From Terriglobia bacterium (GTDB lineage: Bacteria > Acidobacteriota > Terriglobia > Acidiferrales > UBA7541), in contig OY968796.1 in the NCBI GenBank assembly GCA_963695545.1, forward strand, positions 896,001 to 960,000: a stretch of 64,000 bases of DNA. The letters run 5' to 3'. The notes below the pieces were generated by a model. That model was not told where the DNA came from and did no database searches. It worked only from the letters and a program-made list of their open reading frames with translations. Position numbers and translations under genes: made by a program. Of the stretch, positions 44,131 through 63,892 are shown one piece after another. Within the stretch, counting starts at the first letter, position 1, and every line of letters starts with the position of its first letter.

Positions 44131-47100
44131 ATGAAAAGACCTGATCAAACTGTTACCACTGCGAGCGCGACGATCGACTCCCCGCCAATTGCGAAGACCA
44201 ATGGAAAGCGAGACGTGCCCTCCGACGTCTCGTTCGGCGATTTGGGCGTGATTCTTTCGAGCCTCCAAACTATGCGCGATGGGGATTTTTCTGTGCGCCT
44301 TCCCGGCAACTGGACCGGCTTGCAGGGAAAAATCGCAGACACATTCAACGAGATCGTCACGGCCAACCAACAAATGGCCAAAGAGCTGAAGCGTGTTGGA
44401 CAGGTCGTCGGTAAGGAAGGAAGAACCCGCGAGCGAATGAGATTCGATCTTCCGAAAGCCGCCTGGGGAGAGATGGAGGTATCGGTTAACACACTCGTAG
44501 ATGACCTGCTCCGCCCCACCACTGAGGTCACGCGCGCAATTGCCGCCGTTGCGAAGGGCAATCTGACGCAGACCGTGCAGCTCGATGTTGACGGGCGCCC
44601 ACTCGAGGGCGAATTCCTTCGCTCGGCGACGATTGTAAACACCATGATTCAGCAGCTCGGCGTATTTACGTCGGAGGTTACGCGCGTCGCGCGCGAAGTC
44701 GGTACCGACGGAAAGCTGGGCGGCCAGGCGCAGGTGCCCGGCGTGGCCGGCACATGGAAAGACCTCACGGACTCCGTGAACTCCATGGCCAGCAACTTGA
44801 CGGGACAGGTCCGCAACATCGCTGAAGTGGCAACCGCCGTGGCGAGCGGCGACCTGTCACGCAAGATCACGGTCGACGTCAGAGGCGAAATTTTGCAGCT
44901 CAAAGAAGCCATCAACACGATGGTGGATCAGTTGCGATCGTTCGCGTCGGAAGTCACGCGCGTGGCGCGCGAAGTCGGTACGGACGGCAAGCTCGGCGGA
45001 CAAGCAGTTGTGCCCGGCGTGGCCGGAACCTGGAAGGATCTTACGGACTCTGTGAATGCCATGGCCGGAAACCTCACGGCGCAAGTGCGCAACATCGCGG
45101 AGGTCACCACGGCCGTGGCTCGCGGAGATCTATCGCGCAAGATCACCGTCGACGTGAAGGGCGAAATCCTCGAACTAAAAGACACCATCAACACCATGGT
45201 TGACCAGCTCAACGCGTTCGCAGGCGAAGTTACGCGCGTGGCGCGCGAAGTCGGCACAGAAGGCAAGTTGGGCGGTCAAGCGCAGGTCCCCGGCGTGGGC
45301 GGCACGTGGAAGGACCTCACGGACAACGTGAATTTCATGGCCAGCAACCTGACGGGCCAGGTTCGCAACATCGCCGAGGTCGCAACCGCGATCGCCAGAG
45401 GAGATCTCTCGCGGAAAATTACCGTCGACGTCCGCGGAGAAATTCTCGAGCTCAAAGAGACGTTGAATACCATGGTGGACCAGCTCAATCGATTCGCCGG
45501 CGAGGTGACGCGTGTGGCGCGCGAAGTCGGCAGTGAAGGGCGGCTCGGCGGCCAAGCCAACGTGCCCGGTGTCGCGGGAACGTGGAAGGATTTGACCGAC
45601 TCGGTCAACTCAATGGCCAGAAACTTGACTGCGCAAGTGCGCAACATCGCCGAGGTTACGACGGCGGTGGCGCTCGGAGACTTGTCGCGCAAAATCACGG
45701 TCGACGTTAAAGGCGAGATCCTCGAACTGAAAAACACCATCAACACAATGGTTGACCAACTCAACGCGTTCGCCGGAGAAGTCACCCGCGTGGCTCGCGA
45801 GGTCGGCACCGAAGGCAAGCTGGGCGGCCAGGCACAAGTCCCCGGCGCCGGTACCTGGAAGGACTTGACCGACAACGTGAACTTCATGGCCAGTAACTTG
45901 ACCGGCCAAGTCCGCAACATCGCCGAAGTCGCCACCGCCGTGGCACGCGGCGATTTGTCCCGCAAAATCACGGTCGACGTTAAGGGCGAAATCCTCGAAC
46001 TCAAGGACACGCTGAACACCATGGTTGATCAGCTGCGCGCGTTCGCATCTGAAGTCACGCGCGTGGCGCGCGAAGTCGGTACCGACGGAAAGCTAGGTGG
46101 TCAGGCGCAGGTTCCAGGAGTGGCCGGAACCTGGAAGGATCTCACCGATTCTGTGAACTCGATGGCCAGCAACTTGACGGGCCAGGTCCGCAATATCGCT
46201 GAAGTCGCGACCGCCATCGCGAGCGGCGACCTCTCGAAGAAAATTACCGTGAACGTGAGCGGCGAGATTTTGCTTCTCAAAGAAACCATCAACACGATGG
46301 TGGACCAACTCAACGCGTTCGCCGGAGAAGTCACGCGCGTCGCGCGCGAGGTCGGCAGCGAAGGCCGCCTTGGTGGTCAAGCCAACGTGCCCGGCGTGGC
46401 CGGAACCTGGAAGGATCTCACGGACTCTGTCAACTCGATGGCCGGCAACTTGACGGGCCAGGTTCGTAACATCGCGGAGGTCACCACGGCCGTCGCGCGC
46501 GGCGACCTGTCGCGCAAAATCACGGTCGACGTGAAGGGCGAAATCCTTGAATTGAAGAACACGATTAACACCATGGTTGACCAGCTCAACGCCTTCGCCG
46601 GAGAAGTCACGCGCGTGGCTCGCGAAGTCGGCACCGAGGGGAAATTGGGTGGCCAGGCCGAAGTGCCCGGTGTCGGCGGAACGTGGAAAGACCTCACCGA
46701 CAACGTAAATTTCATGGCCAGCAACTTGACCGGCCAGGTCCGCAACATCGCCGAAGTGGCGACGGCCATTGCCAGTGGCGACCTCTCGCGCAAAATCACG
46801 GTCGACGTTCGCGGAGAAATTCTCCAACTCAAAGAAACGCTCAACACGATGGTCGAACAGCTGCGTTCGTTCGCTGCTGAAGTCACGCGCGTTGCGCGCG
46901 AAGTCGGAAGCGAAGGGCGCCTCGGCGGTCAAGCCAACGTCACGGGCGTGGCCGGCACCTGGAAGGACCTGACCGATTCGGTCAACGCGATGGCTGGTAA
47001 CCTGACCGGTCAGGTGCGCAACATCGCCGAAGTCACCACAGCCGTGGCTCGCGGCGACTTGTCCCGCAAAATCACGGTCGACGTGAAAGGCGAAATTCTC

Positions 47101-50100
47101 GAGCTCAAGAACACCATCAACACGATGGTCGACCAGCTCAACGCGTTCGCCGCCGAAGTCACGCGCGTGGCTCGCGAGGTCGGCACTGACGGTAAGTTGG
47201 GCGGTCAGGCGCAAGTTCCTGGCGTCGCCGGCACTTGGAAAGACCTCACCGACAACGTAAACGTGATGGCCGCAAACCTTACGGAACAGGTCCGGGGCAT
47301 TGTGAAGGTCGTGACCGCCGTGGCAAACGGCGAGCTAACAAAAAAGCTCACGGTTCAGGCGAAGGGCGAAGTGGCCGCGCTCGCCGATACCATCAACAAC
47401 ATGACCGACACCCTGGCAACCTTCGCCGATCAGGTAACTACTGTGGCTCGTGAAGTCGGCGTGGAAGGTCGGCTCGGTGGCCAAGCGAACGTACCCGGCG
47501 CGGCCGGCACATGGAAGGATCTCACAGGCAACGTGAACCTCCTCGCCGACAACCTCACCAACCAGGTCCGCGCCATCGCGGAAGTCACCACCGCCGTGAC
47601 CAAGGGCGACTTGACTCGTTCGATTCAAGTCGAGGCCAGCGGCGAAGTGGCGGAGCTGAAAGATTACATCAACACCATGATCGACAATCTCCGCCTCACG
47701 ACCGACCGCAATAACGAACAGGACTGGTTGAAAACGAACCTCGCGCGGTTCACCGGAATGCTGCAGGGGCAACGAGATCTAGCAACCGTCGGCCGAATGC
47801 TTCTGTCCGAGCTCGCGCCGCTCGTCAGCGCTCAGCAAGGTGTGATCTATCAGATGGAGGACGAGGAAACCGGCAACATGGCCTTGCTCTCGGCCTTTGC
47901 CGATCGCGTGGAAGAAGGGCATCCCGATCAGTTGCGATCCGGCAGCGGCCTTGTCGGACAGTGCGCGGCCGAAAAGAGACGCATGCTCATTACCGATGTG
48001 CCGGCGCATGCGATCCCGATCCGCTCCGGATTGTTTGAAGCTGTCCCGCGGAACATCATTGTGCTCCCGGTTCTTTTTGAGGACAGGGTCAAGGCCGTCA
48101 TCGAATTGGCATCGCTGAGCGTCTTCACCCCCTCCCATCTAGCGTTCCTCGAGCAGCTCACTTCCAGCATCGGTATCGTGCTAAACAGCATTGAAGCCAC
48201 AATGCAGACGGAAGGCTTGCTGAAGCAGTCTCAACAGCTTGCCGCCGAGCTTCAAACCCAGCAAACCGAATTGCAGCAAACCAACGAGCAGCTTGCGCAA
48301 AAAGCCCAGCAGCTTGCCGAGCAGAACGTCGAAGTCGAGCGCAAGAACCAGGAAATTGAACAGGCCCGCAGAGCCGTCGAAGAAAAAGCCAAAGAATTGG
48401 CACTCACGTCCAAATACAAATCGGAGTTCCTGGCCAACATGTCACACGAGCTGCGCACACCGCTCAACAGCATTCTCGTGCTGGGCCAGCAACTCACCGA
48501 CAATCCGGACGGCAATTTGACGCTCAAGCAAGTGGAGTTCGCTCGCACGATTCATGGCGCGGGAACCGATCTCTTGAATTTGATCACGGATATTCTGGAT
48601 CTCTCGAAGATCGAATCCGGAACCGTCTCGGTCCAGGCGGAAGAAGTATTCTTCGCGAGCCTGCTTGATATGATCGCTCGCCCATTCCGTCACGAAGCTG
48701 AGGGTCGTCATCTCGATTTTGAAATTCAAACCGACCCGAGGCTCACCCGTAGTCTAGTCACCGACTCAAAGCGGTTGCAGCAAGTTCTCAAGAATCTGCT
48801 TTCCAACGCGCTCAAATTCACGGAACACGGAAGCGTTCGCTTGAGCGTGTACCCTGCCGAAAACGGCTGGAGCGAGAACCATCCGGTGCTCGGAAAGTTG
48901 GCCTCCGTGGTGGCCTTCGAGGTGTCGGACACCGGGATCGGAATACCGGTCGAAAAGCAGCGGCTTATCTTTGAGGCCTTCCAGCAAGCCGACGCGGGCA
49001 CTAGCCGTAAGTACGGCGGCACGGGTCTCGGACTTGCGATCAGCCGCGAACTCGCCGGTTTGCTCGGAGGTGAAATTCAACTACGCAGCGCTCCAGGCAA
49101 GGGCAGCACCTTCACGCTCTACTTACCGCAAACTTACGTTGGACCGTCATCCGGAATTGCGACGGCCGACGCCAAGGCTACCTTTGTGTCCCCCGCGCTT
49201 CGACCCTCGAGCGTTACAGTATCGGAGCGTCCCAACGAACAGATTCCCGACGACCGCGAAACTCTAACGCAAGACGACGCTATCCTCCTGATTGTAGAGG
49301 ACGATCCGCACTACGCGCGACTCCTCCGCGACCTGTCTCGCGACAAAGGCTTCAAGGTTCTCATCGCCACCCGAGGGACGGAAGCCTTGGAGCTGGCTCG
49401 CGAATTCCATCCCACCGCCATCTCGCTCGACGTGTTCTTGCCCGACATGTTGGGCTGGACCGTTCTGAATCATTTCAAGCAAGATCCCACGATGCGCCAC
49501 ATTCCGATTCAGATGTTGACTCTGGACGAAGACCGTCAGCATGGCTTGGCGAGCGGCGCATTCGCGTACGTGAACAAACCGACCTCGCCCGACGAACTGA
49601 ACGCTGCGTTCGCACGCATCAAGGAATACACAGCGCCGCGCCGCAAACGTCTGCTCGTGGTCGAAGACGATCCGAGCGAGCAGCTCAGCATTACCGAACT
49701 TCTCGGATATAACGATATCGACGTTCAGGTCGCTGCAACTGGCGCCGAGGCGCTCGACTCCGTCACCAACGAGTCGTTCGATTGCGTAGTCCTCGATCTG
49801 CGCCTTCCCGACATGTCCGGCTTCGACGTGCTCGAGCGTTTCCGCGAAAACCCATCGCTGAGCAATTTGCCCGTTGTGGTGTTCACCGGGAAAGATTTGT
49901 CGCCCGAGGAAGACGCGCGTCTGCACATGCTCGCGCGCAGCGTCGTCGTCAAAGGTGTGGAATCGCCGGAAAGATTGCTCGATGAAACGGCGTTGTTCCT
50001 GCATCGCGTGGTCACCGACCTTCCGCCCGAAAAGCAAAAAATGCTTGAGCGCTTGCACAATTCCGATGAAGCGCTCGTCGGAAAGAAGGTACTGGTCGTC

Positions 50101-50448
50101 GACGACGACGTCCGGAACATTTTCGCGCTTAGCAGCGTCCTCGAGCGCCGTGGCATGACCGTACTCACCGCCGGCACGGGCCGCGAGGCTATCGCCACGC
50201 TCGAGTCGACTCCGGACGTGGCTATCGTGTTGATGGATATCATGATGCCAGAGATGGACGGATATGAAACGATGCAGGTGATTCGCCAGAATACGTCATT
50301 TCGGCGATTGCCCATCGTCGCCTTGACCGCCAAAGCCATGAAAGGCGATCGCGAAAAGTGCCTCGAAGCCGGCGCATCCGAATATCTGGCAAAGCCGGTC
50401 AATACCGAGCAACTGCTCTCGGCCCTTAGAATGTGGTTCCATCGGTAG
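44131..50448 (+). CDS. Cytoplasmic poly-HAMP hybrid histidine kinase (HAMP array, GAF, HisKA, HATPase, 3 REC)
   Basis: 11 TWKDLT repeats; [30 protein letters not shown] and GGTGLGL motifs; three receiver domains; no TM helix. Confidence 0.95.
44660..47700 (+). repeat. Intragenic 276-bp tandem repeat (92-aa di-HAMP unit)
   Basis: Trp codons at 44755, 45031, 45307, 45583, 45856, 46132, 46408, 46684, 46960, 47236 and 47512. Confidence 0.95.
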
Positions 50449-50561
50449 AGGTCGCGGGCTCGATTTAGAGTTCGCCCCGAAAATGCTATCTTTGTTTGGT
50501 ATGGCCTGATTGATGTCGCTGCGTGTGAAACTTATCTTCTTTTGATTCGATGAGAGGACAG

Positions 50562-51659
50562 ATGAGCGACCACCAAAAGGTCAACATTCTCATGGTAGAC
50601 GATCAGCCTGCCAAGCTGCTCAGCTATGAAGTCATGCTCAAGGAGCTGGACGAGAGTCTCATTAAAGCCCATTCCGCCCGGGAAGCCCTCGATCAGCTGC
50701 TCAGGACCGATATTGCGGTCGTTCTGATGGACGTCAGCATGCCGGAACTCGACGGTTTCGAGCTGGCTGGCATGATCCGCGAGCATCCGCGATTTCAGAA
50801 GACCGCGATCATTTTCATCTCCGCCGTGTACCTAACCGATATGGACCGCCTTAAAGGTTATGAGCGCGGGGCGGTGGATTACATATCCGTTCCAGTTGTT
50901 CCGGAGCTCTTGCGAGCGAAAGTTAGCGTGTTCGCGGACTTGCATCGCAAAACCCGGCAGATGGAAAGCTTGAATCGCGAACTGCGAAGTCTTTCGGCGC
51001 GCCTGATCGCGACTCAGGATGAGGAACGCCGGCGAATCGCTCGCGATTTGCACGATAGCGTCGGCCAATTAGTCGCCTCGCTCTCGATGAATAACGGACT
51101 GGCTTTGATGCAAGCCGAGAATCTCAGCCCTTCCGCTGCCAACGCGTTGCGGCAAAATTCCGACCTGGTTCAACAACTTTCCAAAGAGGTCCGCACCATC
51201 TCCCATCTGCTTCATCCGCCTCTTCTCGATGAAATTGGCCTGTTGCCTGCCATAAAAATGTATGCGGACGGGTTCGCCGAACGCAGCAACCTGAAAGTCA
51301 CTGTGGAATTTTCGCCTGAGATCGGCCGCCTCGCTCCCAATGCGGAGATTTCGGTATTTCGGATCGTGCAAGAATGTTTGACCAACGTTTATCGCCACTC
51401 AGGAAGCGAAACGGCGCACATCAGAATTCATCCCGACGAGAAGAATGTGCTTACGATTCAGGTCATTGACCACGGCAAGGGAATGCCGAAGCGGCAGCTC
51501 ATCTCCATGTCTCTGGGAAGGAACGACGGCGTTGGCCTGAGCGGCATGCGGGAACGGGTAAGAGAGCTTGGGGGTGTGCTTGACATACAATCCGACGAAA
51601 ATGGCACTACGGTCACGGCTGCATTTCCGGTCACCTCAGAGGCGGCAGTTGGTGCGTGA
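50562..51659 (+). CDS. Receiver-HisKA_3 histidine kinase (OsaB-like N-terminal receiver)
   Basis: ILMVDD, LMDVSMP, LRAKVSVF; ERRRIARDLHD, FRIVQECLTNVYRH, DHGKG and GVGLSGMRER motifs. Confidence 0.92.
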   Translation: MSDHQKVNILMVDDQPAKLLSYEVMLKELDESLIKAHSAREALDQLLRTDIAVVLMDVSMPELDGFELAGMIREHPRFQKTAIIFISAVYLTDMDRLKGYERGAVDYISVPVVPELLRAKVSVFADLHRKTRQMESLNRELRSLSARLIATQDEERRRIARDLHDSVGQLVASLSMNNGLALMQAENLSPSAANALRQNSDLVQQLSKEVRTISHLLHPPLLDEIGLLPAIKMYADGFAERSNLKVTVEFSPEIGRLAPNAEISVFRIVQECLTNVYRHSGSETAHIRIHPDEKNVLTIQVIDHGKGMPKRQLISMSLGRNDGVGLSGMRERVRELGGVLDIQSDENGTTVTAAFPVTSEAAVGA

Positions 51660-51751
51660 CGCCTGCGGTCGGTAAATACATCTCGTTCGACCCGCGCATC
51701 CAAGATCGGCGCTGGCTGAATTGTGGGCGAGTGACTGGGAGGATTTTTCGG

Positions 51752-52156
51752 GTGCGCACGCGGTTTCTACTTGTTGACGACAATCGTGTTGTACGGCAAG
51801 GTCTCCGCACTGTGCTCCAAGCGAATCCCGATTGGGAAATTTGCGGCGAGGCAAATACCGGTTTGGCCGCCGTGGACCTCTTCAAAGAATTGCATCCCAA
51901 CGTCGTGATCGTGGATTTCAAAATGCCGGGAATAAATGGCGTTGAGACTGCGCGCCGCATGTTGGAATTTGCTCCCGCCGTGCCGATTGCAATGTTTACC
52001 GAGCACGCGAGCCCCGAATTGGAGAAGCACGCGCTCGATGCCGGCATTCGGAAAGTTGTCTCGAAGATTGACGCGTTTCCGATGGTTGGCATTATCGAGG
52101 CGCTCCTTGGGTCGGACGGAACGGAGTCCAGCATCGAGGAACCGATTAAGAATTAA
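51752..52156 (+). CDS. Single-domain response regulator
   Basis: LLVDDN, IVDFKMPGINGVE and VSK motifs. GTG start inferred. Confidence 0.85.
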   Translation: MRTRFLLVDDNRVVRQGLRTVLQANPDWEICGEANTGLAAVDLFKELHPNVVIVDFKMPGINGVETARRMLEFAPAVPIAMFTEHASPELEKHALDAGIRKVVSKIDAFPMVGIIEALLGSDGTESSIEEPIKN

Positions 52157-54274: not shown

Positions 54275-54505
54275 TCAGGTAGAAGCCGGGGTGAGCTGCC
54301 GGACATGCTCCCCGAGGAATGCGTCACCCTCGATCGTTGCGAAGGTTTGCTCGGGATCAGGCCGCATATCGACGGCTCCGCACGGCAAGTGGTCGGGATG
54401 TGTGTCCAGAATTTCGTCAGGCGAGGCCTCCAAGTGAGCGACCTTCCCGCGGCGAGCCGTGGGCGCCGCGTTAATTACGATGCGCGTGAGCCAAGTGGAA
54501 AACGT
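54275..54505 (-). pseudogene. ECF sigma factor remnant
   Basis: [14 protein letters not shown]...DMRPDPEQTF..E...LGEHVRQLTP*. This is region 2.3 through the start of region 4, with no start codon and no HTH. Confidence 0.65.
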
Positions 54506-54954
54506 CAGGCGTGGGATTTGCGCTCCACGAGCAGCAAGTGCTCGCACGCGAGAATTGTTTCTCCATGTTGATTGATCGCTTGGCAGGATTCGACCACGAT
54601 GCCGTGCGCGGGACGCTTGGGATCGTCGCGCTTTTCCTTGATCGCAACGACCACGTGAATCGTGTCTCCGATAAATACCGGCTTGATGAATCGAAGGCGA
54701 TCGTAGCCGTACGACATCGCGCGCGGATTGATGGCGCCCGCCGTCAATCCCACGGCGATGCTAAACACCAGTGTGCCGTGGGCCATGCGCTGACCGAAAG
54801 GCTGCTTGCTGCACCATTCCGCGTCCATGTGGTGCGGGAAAAAATCGCCGGTTTGTCCGGCGTGCAGCACGATGTCGGTTTCTGTAATGGTTCGCCCGGC
54901 GGTTTCGCGCCGCGCGTTGACCGTGTAATCCTCGAAATACTGTTCGCTCAGCAT
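54505..54954 (-). CDS. MaoC family dehydratase
   Basis: [30 protein letters not shown] and [12 protein letters not shown] motifs. Confidence 0.9.
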
Positions 54955-55018
54955 GCGTGTGTCCGCTCCGGGCGCCAACCACTCTAGCGCACCGGCCGGC
55001 CCCCGGCTTGATCTTTAA

Positions 55019-55047
55019 TTGACAATTGCTTCCATAAAATTTAGATT
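55019..55047 (+). promoter_or_regulatory. Sigma-70 promoter candidate for the SBP/CoA-transferase operon
   Basis: TTGACA-17 bp-TAGATT in an AT-rich patch. Confidence 0.65.
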
Positions 55048-55174
55048 TACTGGTAAAATCGCCGAACTGAGAGTTTATCAAATAGGGTGAGTCCGGGCTA
55101 ATTCGAGATTCGTGTTGGTTACGGTTCAAACGCGCGCCGCCGTCAAACAGGGGCGCGTTCGGTTTTGAGGCCAG

Positions 55175-56350
55175 ATGAGCGTCGACCGGGTCGTTCGACT
55201 GCGTGGCACTGCGTGGTGTCACACTCGGGGTTTTCTCCCGATGGTGGCGACGGCGCAAAGGTTTGCCGAGGCGCATCCCGGCTTCGAAATAGAATGGGAT
55301 GCCAGATCGTTGCAGGAATTCGCCGACTCCTCGATTGCGGAGTTGGCGCGGCAGTACGACTTGATGGTCATCGACCATCCCTCCATCGGACAAGCCGCCG
55401 AGGAAAACGTTCTCCTTCCCCTTAACGAATGGATTCCCGAAGAGTTCCTGGGCATGCAAGCCGCGGCCTCGGTGGGAGCCTCGCATGCAAGTTACGCATA
55501 CGCAGGCCGACAGTGGGCCTTGGCGATTGACGCGGCCGCGCCAATTGCCGGATGGCGCCCGGACCTGTTGAGGCGAGCGGAAGCAGCGATTCCGCGGACG
55601 TGGTCGGAGCTGCTGGAGCTCGCGGGACGCGGCCTGGTGACGTTTCCAGCGAAGGCCATCGACAGCCTGATGCACTTTTACATGTTCTGCGACGCTCTGG
55701 GCGCGGGCCCGTTCCGAGAAGACAACGCTGTGGTGAGCGAAGAAATCGGGATTCGGGCGCTCAAGATGCTCGGCCAGCTTTTCTCGCTTTGCGACGCCCA
55801 ATGTTTGAAGAGAAATCCTATTGCGACCTGGGAGCTCCTCTCCACGAGCGACACGGTGGCTTACTGTCCCTTCGCATACGGATATTCGAACTATTCTCGG
55901 GCAGGCTACTCGACGCATGCGCTCGAGACCGGCAACCTGATCGCGACCGATGATGGACTTCTCTTCCACTCCACGCTGGGTGGAGCGGGCCTGGCGATCT
56001 CCGCGCGCTGCGCGCACAAAGCGATCGCCGCGGAGTACGCCCAGTTTGTCGCTAGCCCGCATTGCCAGAGCACGCTCTACTTCGATTCAGGCGGGCAGCC
56101 GGGGAATCGAACAGCCTGGATGGATGACGAGGTCAACCGGCGCTGCATCAATTTTTTCAGGAACACGCTGCACACTTTGGAACGGGCCTACGTGCGGCCG
56201 CGTTTCGCTGGATATCTCGAATTCCAGGAACACGCTGCCGTCGCGGTGCACCGATACCTGGCTGCGGGGCGGCCCGAAGAGGACGTGATTGCAGAAATGA
56301 ACGATCGGCTGCGCGAAGCGCGGTCAGAGAAATGGCGAGGTGTGGCATGA
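55175..56350 (+). CDS. Solute-binding-protein-fold protein (sugar SBP family) with no signal peptide
   Basis: IEWDARSLQEF, YDLMVIDHP, LLPL, QWALAIDAA, PRTWSEL, STLGGAGLAIS and YVRPR motifs; no hydrophobic N-terminus. Confidence 0.8.
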   Translation: MSVDRVVRLRGTAWCHTRGFLPMVATAQRFAEAHPGFEIEWDARSLQEFADSSIAELARQYDLMVIDHPSIGQAAEENVLLPLNEWIPEEFLGMQAAASVGASHASYAYAGRQWALAIDAAAPIAGWRPDLLRRAEAAIPRTWSELLELAGRGLVTFPAKAIDSLMHFYMFCDALGAGPFREDNAVVSEEIGIRALKMLGQLFSLCDAQCLKRNPIATWELLSTSDTVAYCPFAYGYSNYSRAGYSTHALETGNLIATDDGLLFHSTLGGAGLAISARCAHKAIAAEYAQFVASPHCQSTLYFDSGGQPGNRTAWMDDEVNRRCINFFRNTLHTLERAYVRPRFAGYLEFQEHAAVAVHRYLAAGRPEEDVIAEMNDRLREARSEKWRGVA

Positions 56351-57510
56351 AACCATTGGATGGGCTCTTTGTCGTGGATCTAAGCCAATTTCTCTCGGGG
56401 CCGTCCGCGTCGCTGCGCTTGGCGGATTTGGGCGCCCGCGTGGTGAAGGTGGAGCGGCCGGACGGCGGAGATCTTTGCCGCCAACTCTACATCTCCGACC
56501 TCAAGCTGGACGGGGACAGCACGCTGTTTCATTCCATCAATCGCAACAAGGAGAGTTTCGCCGCGGACCTGAAAAACCCAAAGGACTGCCGGCGATTGTG
56601 GTCGCTGCTGGATCACGCTGACGTGATGATCCACAATTTTCGTCCCGGCGTGATTGACCGGCTGGGGTTCAGCTATGAGGCCGTCAGCAAAAGAAATTCG
56701 CGGCTGGTATACGGAGAGATCAGCGGCTACGGCAAGTTGGGGCCGTGGCGACAAAAACCGGGACAAGATCTGCTGGTGCAATCTCTGTCGGGGCTGCCGT
56801 GGCTGAGCGGTGATGCGAGCCAGCCGCCGATCCCATTCGGCATCGCCGTGGCCGATCTCTACGCAGGCGCTCACCTGGTGCAGGGAATTCTTAGCTGCCT
56901 GGTGCGCAGAGGAATATCCGGGAAGGGCGGAAAGGTTGAAGTCAGTTTGCTTGAATCTATTCTGGATCTTCAATTCGAGTTGCTGACGACCTATCTGAAC
57001 GATGGCGGCCGATTGCCGCAGCGAAGCAAGGTGAATAGCGCGCACGTTTACCTGGGAGCTCCGTATGGGATTTATCCGACTTCCGACGGTTACATCGCAC
57101 TGGCGATGAGCTCCGTGCCCCAGTTGGGCAAACTGCTGAACTGCTCGCAACTCCTTGCTTATAAGAGTCCGGACGCGCTCTTCACGCAACGCGACGAGAT
57201 CAAGCAGATTCTGATCGATCACCTGAAAAAGAAAACCACGAAGCACTGGCTCGGCGTGTTGGAGCCCGCCGACGTGTGGTGCTCGGAAGTGTTGACTTGG
57301 CCGCGCTTGCTTGAGCACGAGGCGTTTCGTCTGCTGGACATGGTGCAGGAAGTGAAACGAAGCAACGGCGTGAAGTTAAAGACGCTGCGCTGTCCCATTC
57401 GGATTGACGGCCAGATCATGAAAAACGAACTGGGCGCTCCGCGCCTGGGCGCCGATACAAATCGATTATTGCGCGAGTTTGCGGGGGAGGCCCGCGGAAT
57501 CGCCGGATGA
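56347..57510 (+). CDS. Family III CoA-transferase (CaiB/BaiF)
   Basis: PLDG..VVDLSQFLSGP, LADLGARVVKVE, NRNKES, NFRPGV, ISGYG and PGQD (catalytic Asp) motifs. Confidence 0.93.
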   Translation: MKPLDGLFVVDLSQFLSGPSASLRLADLGARVVKVERPDGGDLCRQLYISDLKLDGDSTLFHSINRNKESFAADLKNPKDCRRLWSLLDHADVMIHNFRPGVIDRLGFSYEAVSKRNSRLVYGEISGYGKLGPWRQKPGQDLLVQSLSGLPWLSGDASQPPIPFGIAVADLYAGAHLVQGILSCLVRRGISGKGGKVEVSLLESILDLQFELLTTYLNDGGRLPQRSKVNSAHVYLGAPYGIYPTSDGYIALAMSSVPQLGKLLNCSQLLAYKSPDALFTQRDEIKQILIDHLKKKTTKHWLGVLEPADVWCSEVLTWPRLLEHEAFRLLDMVQEVKRSNGVKLKTLRCPIRIDGQIMKNELGAPRLGADTNRLLREFAGEARGIAG

Positions 57511-58760
57511 CCGGACGCAAAACATTCAGGATCGCTGTCCGGAAATTCGGCCCTTTTGAATCGGCGATTCAAAAGCAGTGGGATTCGTTTAATTCCTTCG
57601 GGCAAACCGGCCTCACATTGGAAGCAGTTGCTTTTGATTTGCAGCCGCTTTCGAAATCCCTCTTCGATCACGAAGGCCTCGTGCGCGGAGACTGGGACGT
57701 CGCCTTTCTCGACACGGATTGGCTGGCGCACGCGCACGCATCGAAGGCGCTCCTGAATTTGGCACCGTACGTGAAGGCCGCTCCTCCTAGCGATTTCCCA
57801 CACGGATGGAGCGACTCCCTCTTGCGGTTGCAATCCATCGAGGGCGAAATTCTGGGCCTTCCCTATCACGATGGGCCGGAATGTTTGATCTACAGGAAGG
57901 ACCTGTTTGACGATCCGCGGGAACAACGCGCATACGAAGGACGCTTCGGAGAGAAGTTGCGCGTTCCGCAGACATGGACGGAGTTCCGGCGAGTGGCGAG
58001 CTTTTTTCAGCGCCCGCAGGAGAAGTTGTTCGGCACGGCTGTCGCGGCTTATCCCGACGGCCACAATTCGGTCTACGATTTTCTGCTTCAGCTTTGGACG
58101 CGAGGCGGCGAACTTGTCGATGATGCCGGCGAATTTCACGTGGATACCGCGCAAGCCGTCGAGGCGCTTGAATTTTACCGCGACATTCTTCAAGACGCTT
58201 CCGTGGTTCATCCGCGCTGCGCGGAAATGGATTCGGTGAAATGCGGCTTGGCGTTCGTGAAGGGCGAAATCGCCATGATGGTGAACTGGTTCGGTTTTGC
58301 GGCGATGGCCGAGACCATTGAGAATTCCCGCGTCCGCGGAAAAGTGGATATCGCCGCCATACCTCGCGCGGATGGCTGTGCGTCCTGTTCGCTGAATGTG
58401 TACTGGGTGCTGGCCATCGCCGCGGGAAGTCCGCACCGCGAGGCCGCCTACCAATTCCTGCGGCACGCGATTTCCCCGGCAATGGACAAACTGCTCACGC
58501 TCGAAGGCGCGGTGGGATGCCGCAAATCAACGTGGGGCGACGCGGACGTAAATCGAATGGTGCCGTTTTACAACCGTCTCGATGATCTTCACGCACACGC
58601 GCGCGAACTGCCGCGGCTCGTGGAATGGCCCGAAATCGCATCCGTGATCGATCGAATGATCGTGAAGGCAACGGGCACGCGCGACTCGGCGCAGAAAATT
58701 GCCGGCGAAGCGCAGCGAGAACTCAATCACGTTTCGTCTCCGAAGCCCACGATTCTTTGA
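57507..58760 (+). CDS. Second solute-binding-protein-fold protein with no signal peptide
   Basis: DVAFLDTDWL, GLPYHDGP..LIYRKDLF, VPQTWTEF and GEIAMMVNW motifs; N-terminus MTGRKTFRIAVRKFGPFE is not a signal peptide. Confidence 0.82.
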   Translation: MTGRKTFRIAVRKFGPFESAIQKQWDSFNSFGQTGLTLEAVAFDLQPLSKSLFDHEGLVRGDWDVAFLDTDWLAHAHASKALLNLAPYVKAAPPSDFPHGWSDSLLRLQSIEGEILGLPYHDGPECLIYRKDLFDDPREQRAYEGRFGEKLRVPQTWTEFRRVASFFQRPQEKLFGTAVAAYPDGHNSVYDFLLQLWTRGGELVDDAGEFHVDTAQAVEALEFYRDILQDASVVHPRCAEMDSVKCGLAFVKGEIAMMVNWFGFAAMAETIENSRVRGKVDIAAIPRADGCASCSLNVYWVLAIAAGSPHREAAYQFLRHAISPAMDKLLTLEGAVGCRKSTWGDADVNRMVPFYNRLDDLHAHARELPRLVEWPEIASVIDRMIVKATGTRDSAQKIAGEAQRELNHVSSPKPTIL

Positions 58761-58772
58761 AGGAGTTCCGGA

Positions 58773-59801
58773 ATGGACGCGTCAATTCTGACTGGCGTCG
58801 GAATCATACTGGCCGCGGGGATTCTTCAGGGGATTTTCGCGCTGCCCATGAAATTCGCGCGCGGCTGGAACCACGAGAATATCTGGCTGGTCTTCGCATT
58901 CACCGGACTGGTTGTTTTCCCGTGGCTGCTGGTCGCGGCGACGATACCCCACGCAATCGGCGTGTATCACCTCACGTCGTGGAAGGCCGTGCTGGCAATT
59001 TTTGGTTTCGGCGTGCTGTGGGGCGTGGGAGCGACGCTCACGGGCGTGGGGTTGAAACAGCTTGGAATCGGTTTGGGGCTCTCCATTATTCTTGGGCTCA
59101 GCGCGTCGGTCGGTTCGTTGGTTCCCCTGATCATCTTGGCGCCTCAAAAACTCGCGACGCATCAGGGGCACCTCTTCTTGCTGGGCACCGTGGTGATGCT
59201 TGCCGGCGTGGCATTCTGTGCGCGCGCCGGCGCGCGCCGCGATGCCCAGCAGAGATCGCAGACCGACCCGCAAGGCGCGCGACGGACCTCTTTCCTTTAC
59301 GGCCTGTTGATTTGCATTTGCTCGGGGATACTTTCAGCCAGCCTTAACTTCAGCTACGCCTTCGGAGGTGAAGCGATCGACCACGCCCGCGCTTTGGGCG
59401 CTTCCTCGGCGTGGGCGGCGAATATTGTGGCGGCTCCGGCGACGAGCGGCGGGTTCATCGCGAATCTGATTTTTTGCGTCTACATGCTGAGGAAAAATTC
59501 ATCCGCATCTTTGTTCATGCGGGCCGGGTCGACCGTGAATTGGCTGCACGGAACTCTGATGGGTGCGTTTTGGTTTGGCGGTCTGGCGCTGTACGGTCTG
59601 GGATTATCGCGGTTGGGCAACCTGAGCGCGGTGGTGGGATGGCCGGTGCTGATGGGAACCATCATTCTGGCCAGCAACGCGGCGGGTTATCTGAGCGGAG
59701 AGTGGAAGCAGGCCGGCAGACGCTGTGGCATCTTGCTGGGGGTGGGAATGGCAATTGTGCTTGGGGCGTTGTGGATACTTGGTATGGCGCAACAGGCTTG
59801 A
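58773..59801 (+). CDS. L-rhamnose/H+ symporter (RhaT) family transporter
   Basis: About 10 TM helices; FALPMK..W..ENIW, GVLWGVG, LGLSASVGSLVP, VGWP and GEWK motifs. Confidence 0.85.
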   Translation: MDASILTGVGIILAAGILQGIFALPMKFARGWNHENIWLVFAFTGLVVFPWLLVAATIPHAIGVYHLTSWKAVLAIFGFGVLWGVGATLTGVGLKQLGIGLGLSIILGLSASVGSLVPLIILAPQKLATHQGHLFLLGTVVMLAGVAFCARAGARRDAQQRSQTDPQGARRTSFLYGLLICICSGILSASLNFSYAFGGEAIDHARALGASSAWAANIVAAPATSGGFIANLIFCVYMLRKNSSASLFMRAGSTVNWLHGTLMGAFWFGGLALYGLGLSRLGNLSAVVGWPVLMGTIILASNAAGYLSGEWKQAGRRCGILLGVGMAIVLGALWILGMAQQA

Positions 59802-59833
59802 CGGCGTTATCTTGCAGCGGGGTTATCTAGGCC

Positions 59834-60613
59834 ATGAAAAAAAGAACATCGCAAAGCTACTCGGTCCCGGGACTTGAAAAGGGCTTGGATGCTCTCGAAG
59901 CCCTCGCGAGCGCCAACGTGTCGGAATCGCTCACGCAACTCGCGCGGCGCCTGAATCGGACATCCAGCGAATTGTTCCGGATGATCGCGGTTCTCGAACG
60001 TCGAAACTATATTGCCCGCGATCCGGCGTCGGAAGGCTACCACCTCACGCTCAAGCTTTACGAATTGGCGCACACCCATTCGCCCGTCAATCAACTGCTC
60101 AAAGCAGCCGCACTGCCCATGCAGGAGCTCTCGGACATGGTGCTGGAATCGTGCCATCTCTGCGTGCTCAGCGGTCCGCTGCTCACCGTAATCGCGCAAG
60201 CCGAGAGTCCCGAGGCCGTTCGGCTTTCGGTTGAAGTCGGATACAAGGCTCTTCCTCTCAACACGGTCTCCGGCCGCCTAATGGTGGCTTTCCTGAGCCC
60301 GGAGGAGCGCGAGACCTTTCTGACGACGGACACTTTTTTTCGGAAGCTGGCGCCGCCCAAACAAAAGCAGCTTCGAACCGAACTGACGAAGATCCGCAGC
60401 GACGGCTATCACGTTGCGCCCAGCAGCAGGCGAACAGGACTGGACGCCTCTTGTCTGGTTGGAAATCCGAGGGTCGGTGTGCTCGCTGCGCTCGGGGTTC
60501 CCTTCATTCCCGGTGGCGCAAACGACGGAAAAGAGCGCAAGTTGATTCCAGTAATTCAGCGCTATGCGGATCGAATCACCGCGGCGGTGGGCCTGTCGAA
60601 GTCATCCATTTGA
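59834..60613 (+). CDS. IclR family transcriptional regulator
   Basis: YSVPGLEKGLDALEAL, ELFRM, LTLKLYEL and ESCHL motifs. Confidence 0.92.
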   Translation: MKKRTSQSYSVPGLEKGLDALEALASANVSESLTQLARRLNRTSSELFRMIAVLERRNYIARDPASEGYHLTLKLYELAHTHSPVNQLLKAAALPMQELSDMVLESCHLCVLSGPLLTVIAQAESPEAVRLSVEVGYKALPLNTVSGRLMVAFLSPEERETFLTTDTFFRKLAPPKQKQLRTELTKIRSDGYHVAPSSRRTGLDASCLVGNPRVGVLAALGVPFIPGGANDGKERKLIPVIQRYADRITAAVGLSKSSI

Positions 60614-60619
60614 CGCCGC

Positions 60620-61729
60620 TCAATTCTGGTCAAGAGGAAGCGGCTCGGCTTCTCGGGCGCTCGATGCGTAAGCAGCCTCGACCAGCGCCATCGTTTGGTA
60701 GGCGTCCTCGAAATGTGACGGAAGCTCGGAGACGCTTCCCTCCACGTACGCTTGCAGGGCACCCATGCTTCCCACGAATGCATCGGGAAACCAATTCCCG
60801 CGAATCGGGCAGGATTGCCATCCATCTTTTATTTCGCTTCTCTGAATGTATTCGAGTGAATCGGGTTTGCCCTTTGGATAGTCGAGATTGATGCCGAGCG
60901 TCGCGCGCATCGAGCCCGCAGTTCCTTCCCATTGGACAAAACTGCGCTGCTGCTTCTCGCCGTAGTCGTGGCCATGGTTGGTGGCAACGAAAACCCGTTT
61001 CGAGTCGCCATAATCGAGGATCATCACGGATTTGGTCGCGGCCAATTTCGGGTACGCCGGGTGACGCACGGTCTTGGCGTAAATGCCGCGAGGGTTTCCG
61101 AACCAGGAGCGGATCAGATCCAGATAATGAATGCTGTGGTACAGAATCTCGAGGCGCGGCGCCGTGGCCAGGAACGTCCACAAGTGCCAGGGCGTATAAT
61201 TCCGGACCTGCGCTTCGAAATCGTGACATTCACCGAGCAGCCCGCCCGCCGCTAGCGCGCGGGCCGCGAGGTTGCAGGGCGCATAACGAAGCTGAAAATT
61301 GACCGCGGCGACCAACGATTTCCGACGGCACAAATCGCGTATCTCCGTCGCTTCGGCAAGGGTCTCGCCCATGGGCTTTTGCATCAGAACGGGAACGCCG
61401 TCTGGTAGATCGACCAAAATCCCCGGAATCCCGGAAGCCGGCACGGCAACGTCGTAGACGGCGTCGGGCGGCGCGAAGGCCACCGCTTCCTTTATGGAGG
61501 TGAAGCTACTGGGAACGCCTGAGCGTCGTGCGAGTTCCTCCGCTTTTCCGGCGACGATATCGATGAGCGCGAGAACAGGAAAGCCCGCTTTGGCATATGC
61601 TGGAAGATGCGCCGCGCTGACGATGCCGCCGGCACCGATAATAATGATTGGGCGCACTCGCTCGGGGCGAGGCGGCTGCGCAGCGAGGGCAACCGTTTTC
61701 CAGCTATCTATCGGTAACTCGTTTGTCAA
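60620..61729 (-). CDS. Gfo/Idh/MocA family oxidoreductase
   Basis: IIGAGGIV..AHLPAY, QKPM, VNFQLRY and HSIHYLD motifs. Start uncertain. Confidence 0.9.
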   Translation of the reverse strand: MTNELPIDSWKTVALAAQPPRPERVRPIIIIGAGGIVSAAHLPAYAKAGFPVLALIDIVAGKAEELARRSGVPSSFTSIKEAVAFAPPDAVYDVAVPASGIPGILVDLPDGVPVLMQKPMGETLAEATEIRDLCRRKSLVAAVNFQLRYAPCNLAARALAAGGLLGECHDFEAQVRNYTPWHLWTFLATAPRLEILYHSIHYLDLIRSWFGNPRGIYAKTVRHPAYPKLAATKSVMILDYGDSKRVFVATNHGHDYGEKQQRSFVQWEGTAGSMRATLGINLDYPKGKPDSLEYIQRSEIKDGWQSCPIRGNWFPDAFVGSMGALQAYVEGSVSELPSHFEDAYQTMALVEAAYASSAREAEPLPLDQN

Positions 61730-62090: not shown

Positions 62091-62948
62091 TTGCGGGAGA
62101 GCGTGAGCCGGGATCAGACCTTGCAAGAAAAAGTCTCCTGGTTGCAAAGGCAGGCGAACCGAATTCGCATTTCAAGCCTTCGGATGGTGCACGCCGCCAA
62201 TCTGGGCCACCCCGGCGGCGATCTTTCCTCAGCCGACATTTTGGCGACTCTTTATCTGGCAGTTCTGCGCGTCGACAAGACGCGGCCCGACGCGCCGGAT
62301 CGCGATCGCTTCATCATGAGCAAGGGACATTGCTCTGGAGCGCTTTATTCGACGTTGGCCGCGGCGGGAATTCTGCAGCAATCCTCGTTGGACACGTACA
62401 TGAAACCGCTCTCGCCGCTGAACGGACATCCGGATCGAAACAAAGTTCCGGGTGTCGAAGCCAATACCGGACCTCTGGGTCACGGGTTGCCGATCGCCGT
62501 CGGCTGCGCGATGGCCGGGAAAATCGATTCCGCGGCGTGGCGCGTATTCGTGCTCACCGGCGATGGCGAACTACAGGAAGGCAGCAATTGGGAAGCGGCC
62601 ATGGCCGCAGCGCACTACAAACTCGACAATTTGACCCTAATCGTCGATCGCAACGGGATCCAGCAGGGCGACTTCACGGAAAACACGATCCGCATGGAGC
62701 CGCTTGCGGACAAGTGGCGCGCTTTTGGTTGGAGCGTGCGTGAAGTGAACGGCAACGACCCCGCTGGGCTGCTTGCGTGCTTTGAAAGCTTGCCGGCGGA
62801 AACGGGAAAACCCACCTGTGTGATTGCACACACGGAAAAAGGATACGGCGTCTCTTTCATTCGCAATCGGCCTGAGTGGCATCACCACGTCCCCACTGCG
62901 GCAGAGCTTGAGGCCGCGATTCGCGAGCTTGAGGCGCGCGCGGAGTGA
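62091..62948 (+). CDS. Split transketolase, N-terminal (ThDP-binding) subunit; apulose-4-phosphate transketolase A-like
   Basis: GHPGGDLS, DRFIMSKGH, NGHP, TGPLGHG and GDGELQEG..WEA motifs. Confidence 0.9.
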   Translation: MRESVSRDQTLQEKVSWLQRQANRIRISSLRMVHAANLGHPGGDLSSADILATLYLAVLRVDKTRPDAPDRDRFIMSKGHCSGALYSTLAAAGILQQSSLDTYMKPLSPLNGHPDRNKVPGVEANTGPLGHGLPIAVGCAMAGKIDSAAWRVFVLTGDGELQEGSNWEAAMAAAHYKLDNLTLIVDRNGIQQGDFTENTIRMEPLADKWRAFGWSVREVNGNDPAGLLACFESLPAETGKPTCVIAHTEKGYGVSFIRNRPEWHHHVPTAAELEAAIRELEARAE

Positions 62949-63892
62949 GTGAACTTTTCGATTGCCGGGACGCCTTTTCTCAAACGCTCGAGGAACTCGC
63001 CGCGAACGACCCACGCGTCGTCGCCGTCGTGAACGATTCGGTGAGTTCGACGAAGCTGAAGAATTTCAGCAAGCGGTTTCCCAATCGCTTCATCAACGTC
63101 GGGATCGCTGAGCAGAACATGGTGGGCGTGGGCGCGGGCCTGGCCAACGGAGGCAAATTACCGTTCGTCTGCGCGGCTTCCTGCTTTATGACGGCGAGAG
63201 CCATGGAGCAGATCAAAGTGGATCTCGGATACTCGCGCTACAACGTGAAACTCTGCGGAATGTCCAGCGGAATGGCATACGGAGAATTGGGCCCGACGCA
63301 TCACTCGATTGAAGACCTGGCCTGGATGCGCGCGATTCCGAATCTGACGGTCGTCGTTCCTGCGGACCCGATTGAAACGCGATCGGCGATGGAGGCCATC
63401 GCGCGGTACGAAGGTCCGGTGTTTTTTCGTCTGAGCCGCATGCCTGTGCCCAATATCCATCCGCGCGATTACCGGTACGAAATCGGCAAGTCGGTGCGCC
63501 TGCGCGAAGGCGACGACATCACTTTGGTCGCGAACGGCGTACTGGTGTCCCGCGCGCTGGAAGCGGCCGATGTGCTCGAACGGAGTGGCATCTCAGCTCG
63601 CGTGATCAATATGTCCACCGTGAAGCCGCTCGACCGCGCCGCGATTATTGATGCGGCGACGACTACCGGAGGGATCGTAACGGTGGAAGAACACTCGATC
63701 TACGGCGGACTCGGCGGCGCGATTGCGGAAGTTGTGGCAACGACTTGCCCGGTGCGAATGCGAATTCTCGGCGTACCCGGCGAATTTGCGCCGACAGGTA
63801 CTGAAGAATTTCTGCTCGAGCATTTTGGATTGACGGCGCAAGGCATCGCGAAGGCAGCCGTTGAACTTCTCGAGGTCGTGCGACGCGTATGA
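62945..63892 (+). CDS. Split transketolase, C-terminal subunit; apulose-4-phosphate transketolase B-like
   Basis: NVGIAEQNM, RAMEQIK, LGPTHHSIED, VKPLD and EEHS..GGLG motifs. Confidence 0.9.
   Translation: MSELFDCRDAFSQTLEELAANDPRVVAVVNDSVSSTKLKNFSKRFPNRFINVGIAEQNMVGVGAGLANGGKLPFVCAASCFMTARAMEQIKVDLGYSRYNVKLCGMSSGMAYGELGPTHHSIEDLAWMRAIPNLTVVVPADPIETRSAMEAIARYEGPVFFRLSRMPVPNIHPRDYRYEIGKSVRLREGDDITLVANGVLVSRALEAADVLERSGISARVINMSTVKPLDRAAIIDAATTTGGIVTVEEHSIYGGLGGAIAEVVATTCPVRMRILGVPGEFAPTGTEEFLLEHFGLTAQGIAKAAVELLEVVRRV

Follow-up and report, generated by a model that had tools for sequence, protein, structure and literature searches.

A widespread module of cytoplasmic maltose-binding-fold proteins and a CoA-transferase, with a possible role in the catabolism of blocked sugars

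What might two sugar-binding proteins do in a cell that does not export them? The question is raised by a locus in a stretch of 64,000 nucleotides from a Terriglobia bacterium (contig OY968796.1, positions 896,001 to 960,000), which as a whole is called the window below. At 54505-61729 of the window, two genes encoding the maltose-binding-protein (MBP) fold of substrate-binding proteins (SBPs), here named SBP-A and SBP-B, flank the gene of a family III coenzyme A (CoA)-transferase, to which both are joined by ATGA overlaps (56347-56350 and 57507-57510). Profile searches of the window proteins confirmed this arrangement, together with the seven genes and families that an initial annotation of the locus had listed. 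The module is real, widespread and mis-annotated, its role in the cytoplasm is firm, and it is apparently undescribed: the cluster matched no characterised pathway in the literature searched (most subscription papers excepted), nor was a description of the combination of SBP, CoA-transferase and hydratase found there, which subscription papers and bioRxiv supplements could hold. The supplement of PMC9007349 gave no matches. As for its function, our leading and still tentative reading is that of a mobile cytoplasmic side route, with two MBP-fold enzymes, which feeds a chemically blocked sugar variant into a non-phosphorylative pathway.

Location and genomic partners of SBP-A and SBP-B

The ATG of SBP-A is preceded by an in-frame stop two codons upstream, and the start of SBP-B by 33 open codons that are basic and non-hydrophobic. 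In the predicted models the first strand of the fold begins at residue 7 and residue 6, respectively. Given the upstream stop, the non-hydrophobic leader and a fold that starts within seven residues, neither protein has a hidden signal peptide. A heuristic screen for export (11-residue hydropathy of at least 2.0 in the first 45 residues, lipobox, Tat motif) found a signal in 0 of 120 SBP-A and 0 of 120 SBP-B matches, queries included. When as many as 45 in-frame codons upstream were taken in, a hydropathy cut was passed by 3 of 118 SBP-A and 1 of 52 SBP-B sequences, in all cases upstream of the apparent start, and by 11 of 16 secreted neighbours, which served as positive control; among 150 listed representatives of 50% clusters, the match begins after residue 30 in five. 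The absence of a signal or lipoprotein peptide, first noted for the two window genes, was thus borne out by the heuristic screen and extends to the homologues, and neither the signal-bearing homologues nor the mis-called starts against which the initial annotation had cautioned were found.

The survey of genomic partners covered 119 loci, made up of the window itself, the 80 best among 565 GTDB matches, 13 hand-picked plasmid records and, from sampled genomes, 16 loci of Pseudomonadota/Acidobacteriota and 9 of Bacteroidota. Among the 91 SBP-A loci that are fully flanked (at least 6 kb on each side), a CoA-transferase is found in 87 and a hydratase (MaoC or crotonase) likewise in 87, a Gfo gene in 59, SBP-B in 40 and permeases of the CUT1 type in 27. 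CoA-transferase and MaoC are often present as paralogue pairs, and the type of transporter varies (RhaT, FucP, SSF, ABC or TRAP). Seven long homologues were seen among 7,999 candidates, and three clusters count as credible fusions whose junctions are intact: SBP-A is joined to a CoA-transferase in P0395 (three members, two sources) and P0392 (two members), and to an enolase-family enzyme in P0394 (four long members, several sources). L117, P0393 and P0396 were rejected, their scrambled junctions being frameshifts, and the singletons P0391 and P0397 were not used as evidence for fusion. The counts and the fusions uphold an association of the SBPs with CaiB and MaoC rather than with permeases of ATP-binding cassette (ABC) transporters.

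Taken together, the lack of signals, the conserved linkage to enzymes and the fusions make a transport role very unlikely. Binding proteins of ABC transporters carry a Sec, Tat or lipoprotein export signal and are consistently linked to cognate permeases and an ATPase; SBP-A and SBP-B have no such signal, and the CUT1 permeases in the 27 loci are mostly accompanied by a separate SBP. We are confident that both proteins are cytoplasmic and not involved in transport, consider it highly probable that they work within the CoA module, and find it somewhat probable that at least one of them is catalytic.

In their predicted models both proteins have the type II periplasmic-binding (MBP) fold. SBP-A (predicted local distance difference test score, pLDDT, 93.8) matches MalE3 with Z 38.7 and a root-mean-square deviation (rmsd) of 2.4 over 366 residues, and SBP-B (pLDDT 93.1) matches 5iai with Z 43.5 and an rmsd of 2.8 over 391 residues; the two share 17% identity by profile. 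In 134 SBP-A sequences the conserved set comprises W14, H16, R18, R44, D67, H68, D119, Y237, Y240, Q308 and R341, of which His16, Arg18, Asp67, His68, Asp119, Tyr237 and Arg341 are kept in at least 90%, at a mean identity of 32%. Presumably these residues line the cleft, as judged from the positions known for maltose-binding protein and not from coordinates. The ESM Atlas gave generic SBP clusters only, and cyclohexadienyl dehydratase, thiaminase I and MqnA/D were not among the best 50 fold matches listed for the two proteins.

In sampled genomes the module is patchy. Of 200 further genomes from the phylum of the window's bacterium one carries it; the count is 12 among 300 Pseudomonadota, 9 among 250 Bacteroidota and, the genome at the centre of that sample aside, 0 among 250 Bacillota, despite the existence of loci in Paenibacillus (Bacillota). 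Its presence in the Actinomycetota rests on one Streptomyces plasmid, and a haloarchaeal plasmid carries SBP-B with an AMP-forming ligase, a transferase, MaoC and a fucosidase. In a divergent SBP-A branch (32-35%) transferase, SBP and crotonase stay together as a trio, as seen in Sinorhizobium, Vibrio, Pseudosulfitobacter, Streptomyces and Variovorax. In L095, L097, L098, L099 and L117 the divergent module comes with a DUF4432 epimerase-like protein, a short-chain dehydrogenase/reductase (SDR) and a crotonase, and most of these loci add Gfo, a sugar-phosphate isomerase or FAH; these modules would represent a third substrate type.

A possible side route for blocked sugars and its alternatives

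The other two settings differ in their sugar backbone. The form with Gfo and MaoC occurs in fucose and pectin settings. It stands in operons of S. meliloti, Roseibium and Shinella with mutarotase and enolase genes, joined in S. meliloti and Shinella by a fuconate dehydratase; the window proteins are 65% (MaoC), 48% (Gfo) and 35% (IclR) identical to those of the S. meliloti fucose operon. Among the neighbours of this form are fucosidases, GH78, GH106, GH127, GH141, apiosidase, pectate lyase and pectin esterase. In S. meliloti 1021 some 10 kb separate the transferase and SBP-A genes from the fucose operon, the genes being contiguous in Roseibium and Shinella, and the transferase gene on pSymB (L085:9301-10451) is split over two reading frames; it is whole in strain Ak57. 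No fitness-data annotations for the S. meliloti module genes were found in the literature searched.

The form with crotonase and aldehyde dehydrogenase (L070, L118, L119, L120 and L156) is found in agar regions, next to a 3,6-anhydro-L-galactonate cycloisomerase (E 1e-153 to 5xd7), agarase domains and a P450. By eye, the gene set adjoining L156 resembles the P450 cluster for 6-O-methylgalactose, in the order given in PMC10033563. In Colwellia a PhyH-family dioxygenase gene (L070:15969-16751), possibly encoding an alternative demethylase, lies between the module aldehyde dehydrogenase and the cycloisomerase. The cycloisomerase (at least 57%) occurs in 5 of the 300 sampled Pseudomonadota, three of which are the three genomes with the agar-type module; these three may be related to each other.

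In both settings the module appears to stand beside a canonical route. A second, separate aldehyde dehydrogenase is present in all four agar-type genomes tested (the one in G001 matches 3k2w with 927 bits, versus 414 for the module enzyme), and the module therefore has its own entry enzyme. With the Gfo form, conventional dehydratases, as identified by sequence, coexist in the own genome and in five of five Bacteroidota. One region of the source genome (G000:C1:2521000-2525300, L087), with GH28, a UxaA/GarD dehydratase, an SDR, a lactonase-like gene and a mutarotase, is by its predicted content the canonical fucose/arabinose-type oxidative cluster. The lactonase, fuconate dehydratase, and KDF dehydrogenase and hydrolase of the non-phosphorylative L-fucose pathway are absent from 54505-61729. 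In the SBP-A tree, the agar-type proteins nest among the fucose-type sequences. A side route that brings along its own dehydrogenase and is attached to two unrelated canonical routes suggests a modification that their sugars share. The simplest such modification is 2-O-methylation, and an O-methylated substrate is possible, though somewhat less likely than not. 2-O-methyl-L-fucose and 2-O-methyl-xylose are sugars of rhamnogalacturonan II (RG-II), according to 10.64898/2026.03.13.711244.

The sugar would enter this locus through the RhaT-like symporter and be oxidised by the Gfo enzyme to a lactone, which SBP-B may open. CoA transfer to the resulting acid by the protein encoded at 56347-57510, whose Asp170 is intact, is predicted from the chemistry of its family, as is elimination of the C3 hydroxyl by MaoC. 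Ordinary dehydration of an aldonate yields an enol, which tautomerises to the 2-keto-3-deoxy acid. With an O-methyl group at C2, e.g. in 2-O-methyl-L-fucose, the product would be a 2-methoxy-enoyl-CoA, an enol ether that is unable to tautomerise. SBP-A could hydrolyse this ether to methanol and the 2-keto-3-deoxy acyl-CoA, a speculative step that we consider doubtful and that falls to SBP-A because no other constant gene remains to carry it out; SBP-A is thus proposed as an enol-ether hydrolase or a ligand-handling partner. The CoA would then be handed on to another substrate molecule, leaving the keto-deoxy acid to join the canonical route, whose genes lie elsewhere in the genome. Such a route needs no aldolase or thiolase, which fits the module core: no lyase, thiolase or aldolase was found there, nor any lyase family among 105 recurrent neighbour clusters. 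The full scheme, in which an MBP-fold lactonase and an MBP-fold enol-ether hydrolase take part in an oxygen-free, CoA-cycling O-demethylation of 2-O-methyl RG-II or agar sugars, with release of methanol, in bacteria and a haloarchaeon, seems rather unlikely as a whole. Its first part, oxidation of a sugar followed by CoA activation of the acid, had already been suggested in the initial annotation and is supported.

The role of SBP-B is suggested by gene replacement. Of the 59 fully flanked Gfo loci, 26 hold SBP-B only, 22 an amidohydrolase only, six both and five neither (Fisher p 1.6e-6, which is overstated because the loci are kin). In L152, L154 and L157 the amidohydrolase sits after the transferases, in the slot held elsewhere by SBP-B, and a FastTree phylogeny of SBP-A (51 and 31 tips, midpoint root, no shuffle control) requires a minimum of four changes of state. 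None of the five aldehyde-dehydrogenase loci carries SBP-B or an amidohydrolase; there the dehydrogenase would yield the acid directly. Its alternation with lactonase-like amidohydrolases, and its absence from loci whose aldehyde dehydrogenase would supply the acid, suggest that SBP-B may be an aldonolactonase, a role to which we give nearly even weight.

Several observations weigh against this set of proposals. The solved fold matches listed for SBP-A and SBP-B are all binding proteins. Six of the 59 Gfo loci hold SBP-B plus an amidohydrolase; in four of these the amidohydrolase is of another subtype and lies in a separate block with an L-fucose dehydrogenase above its NCBIfam cut-off, so that a table with no double loci needs a split into subtypes that was chosen after the data had been seen. 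The amidohydrolases score 211 against an NCBIfam fuconolactonase cut-off of 400, and Persicobacter has SBP-B beside a propeller lactonase. Four full loci have no CoA-transferase within the stretch examined, and in 11 of the 27 permease loci no separate SBP was detected, of which six were explained on inspection and five remain. Crotonases mostly act on (S)-3-hydroxyacyl-CoA, not an obvious fit to an L-galacto substrate, and 2-O-methyl-anhydrogalactose as a constituent of agar was not confirmed in the agar-sugar literature searched. Genes for the use of methanol are not conserved across the loci, and the window's own neighbours suggest apiose, a branched sugar.

An unlikely alternative, yet the best of those considered, is that the SBPs are cytoplasmic and non-catalytic, and bind the sugar acid or lactone to deliver it to the CoA-transferase or the dehydratase, or to sense it. 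The two-lobed binding fold is intact, its structural matches are binding proteins only, fusion to two different enzymes would suit a delivery domain, and the singleton P0397 is a fusion with LacI. A mere binder, however, should hardly take turns with a lactonase-like enzyme in one gene slot, and a His/Asp/Arg set is conserved at 32% mean identity. Moreover, SBP-A does not track the sugar backbone, since the agar-type proteins nest among those of the fucose type.

Less probable still is the activation by CoA of a branched sugar acid (apionate, aceric acid or hamamelonate) that an SBP fold would then cleave at a C-C bond, as citramalyl-CoA lyase does. The lack of a lyase, thiolase or aldolase in the core agrees with this, as do the apiose-type operon that adjoins the window module (see below), a RuBisCO-like protein with an OiaK-like kinase in 10 of 81 loci, and GH127 in five. 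The agar and rhizobial fucose loci, however, have no branched-sugar context. The RuBisCO-like and transketolase sets are themselves branched-sugar routes, so that their co-location with the module may reflect a shared polysaccharide only. The RuBisCO-like pair (L006, L022, L024, L025, L027, L047, L049, L051, L057 and L078) scores under the OiaX/OiaK cut-offs and is often joined by a gene of the Asp/Glu racemase family; it would represent a branched-acid route, possibly an uncharacterised one. Cleavage of a branched acid by the SBP folds in the manner of itaconate degradation, as first suggested, is so far not supported: the module is accompanied by complete canonical routes in which the 2-keto-3-deoxy acid is cleaved anyway, and the gene replacement suggests a lactonase role for SBP-B instead.

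Of slightly lower probability is a CoA-cycling dehydratase or epimerase of the CaiB/CaiD kind for plain aldonates (fuconate, rhamnonate, arabinonate), with the SBPs as accessories. In its favour, the transferase and the hydratase are the near-constant genes; an (R)-specific MaoC suits C3 of L-fuconate, and no dehydratase lies nearby in the window locus and in L158-L160. Against it stand the conventional dehydratases predicted by sequence in the same operon (S. meliloti, Shinella) or genome (the own genome and the five Bacteroidota), and a second entry dehydrogenase would be superfluous. Finally, it is very improbable that the two are ordinary binding proteins of ABC transporters whose starts were mis-called or whose permeases are encoded elsewhere: the database names read ABC substrate-binding protein and SBP-B directly follows permease genes in L031, L058 and L090, but these three loci hold a separate SBP before the permeases, SBP-A has its upstream stop, the homologues lack signals and the fusions are to cytoplasmic enzymes.

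The locus and its neighbours

Table 1. Genes of the module and the adjoining operon (window coordinates; aa, amino acids)
Gene product	Position	Strand	Remarks
MaoC-type (R)-hydratase/dehydratase	54505-54954	-	149 aa; PF01575, E 1e-22; Asp37/His42 motif present
SBP-A, MBP fold without signal peptide	55175-56350	+	391 aa; PF01547; module core
Family III (CaiB/Frc) CoA-transferase	56347-57510	+	387 aa; PF02515, E 2e-90
SBP-B, second MBP-fold protein without signal	57507-58760	+	417 aa; PF01547
RhaT-family sugar:proton symporter-like protein	58773-59801	+	PF06379, E 1e-26
IclR-family regulator	59834-60613	+	PF01614 and PF09339
Gfo/Idh/MocA dehydrogenase	60620-61729	-	PF01408; proposed aldose 1-dehydrogenase yielding a lactone
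Split transketolase, start of adjoining divergent operon	62091-63892	+	context, outside the conserved module

The CoA-transferase matches PF02515 over its full length (304 bits) and stays under all NCBIfam equivalog cut-offs. Its Asp170, which we take to be the equivalent of Asp169 in Frc, is invariant in 58 homologues. A methylacyl-CoA racemase is disfavoured: the match to racemases is weaker than that to transferases, and the racemase His is missing at its presumed position. The Asp/His motif of MaoC proteins is catalytic. The best PDB match of the window MaoC is 4ffu (E 5e-61), a solved close homologue that carries only the name 'oxidase', and the Gfo protein has no close solved structure (best PDB E 2e-8). 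The RhaT-like protein scores 237 bits against an NCBIfam cut-off of 369 for RhaT proper. A shared IclR operator, sought in the two divergent intergenic regions, gave no convincing repeat. The closest homologues of this genome's genes are labelled Acidobacteriota.

The initial annotation held that the locus has no ABC permease or ATPase. No ABC permease indeed lies within 54505-61729, but just past the window end a complete ribose-type ABC transporter is found. This transporter differs in type from the SBPs and is complete by itself. It belongs to the divergent operon, which beyond the window encodes an FGGY kinase, the ribose-type ABC transporter with its ATPase, permease and own signal-bearing SBP (L001:5217-9031), and an isomerase. 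The signal-bearing SBP is closest to 5ibq/4ry0 (324 bits), and the ligand in 5ibq is apiose. With the AptAB/AplK pathway for apiose as our presumed model, the operon likely serves apiose-type catabolism. The isomerase (472 aa; operon at window 62091-63892 and L001:3890-10459) has a weak sulfoquinovose isomerase match (110 of 700 bits) as its sole NCBIfam match; the operon resembles one for the breakdown of apiose in which the isomerase is non-standard. Upstream of the module, the list of open reading frames (ORFs) has a 2105-aa HAMP-repeat hybrid histidine kinase with response regulators (44131-52156), and a short minus-strand ORF just downstream of MaoC (54275-54547) resembles, by eye, a sigma-factor remnant.

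Implications and comparison with known systems

The annotation 'ABC sugar-binding protein' thus includes a mis-annotated cytoplasmic family, for which 5,666 and 2,991 matches per 8,000 candidates each are an upper bound that includes ordinary SBPs. If the proteins are catalytic, the evolution of binding proteins into enzymes extends to the maltose-binding fold. Apart from 6-O-methylgalactose, the literature searched gave no account of what becomes of methylated cell-wall sugars, and the module supplies named candidate genes in cultured Sinorhizobium, Sphingobacterium, Paenibacillus and Colwellia.

The CUT1 (cluster D) binding proteins MalE3 of T. maritima (6dtq), Arad_9887 (5iai) and SmoF have the fold (rmsd 2.4-2.8 Å) and the SBP_bac_1 domain in common with SBP-A and SBP-B. 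At 16-24% identity, the latter differ in that they lack an export signal and are tied and fused to enzymes. Precedents for a type II binding fold turned enzyme are thiaminase I and MqnD, with substrates that differ from those of the module; cyclohexadienyl dehydratase is a further SBP-derived enzyme (PMC7683729).

According to PMC8360166 and PMC10033563, P450 demethylation of 6-O-methyl-D-galactose is oxidative and yields formaldehyde. It, too, frees a cell-wall sugar of an O-methyl block, and its genes lie near the agar-type module, whereas the route proposed here would be hydrolytic and CoA-dependent. With the non-phosphorylative L-fucose pathway and the S. meliloti operon the module shares the mutarotase, lactonase-like and enolase genes that recur near it. 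It stands beside this full route, not in its place, and the accessible portions of two accounts of the pathway (PMC11378808, PMC6336799) name no CoA step. Klebsiella michiganensis oxidises deoxyribonate via acyl-CoA, with a ligase, a 3-hydroxyacyl-CoA dehydrogenase and a thiolase; the part of that paper at hand has no mention of a hydratase (PMC6365646). In this route, too, the sugar acid is handled as a CoA thioester, but its three enzymes are missing from the module core.

Closest in chemistry are the CoA-cycling hydro-lyase systems CaiB/CaiD for carnitine and Ict/Ich/Ccl for itaconate, which likewise combine a CoA-transferase with an intact Asp and an enoyl-CoA hydratase. The module proteins are far under the equivalog cut-offs of these systems (67 of 340 bits for the RipB/Ich model), a CitE-type lyase was not found in the module, and a sugar dehydrogenase, a sugar transporter and the SBP folds are added. 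Precedents thus exist for CoA-linked catabolism of sugar acids and for SBP-derived enzymes, whereas no description of the present combination was found in the literature searched; by analogy, the module would work like CoA cycling of the CaiB/CaiD type attached to oxidative sugar catabolism.

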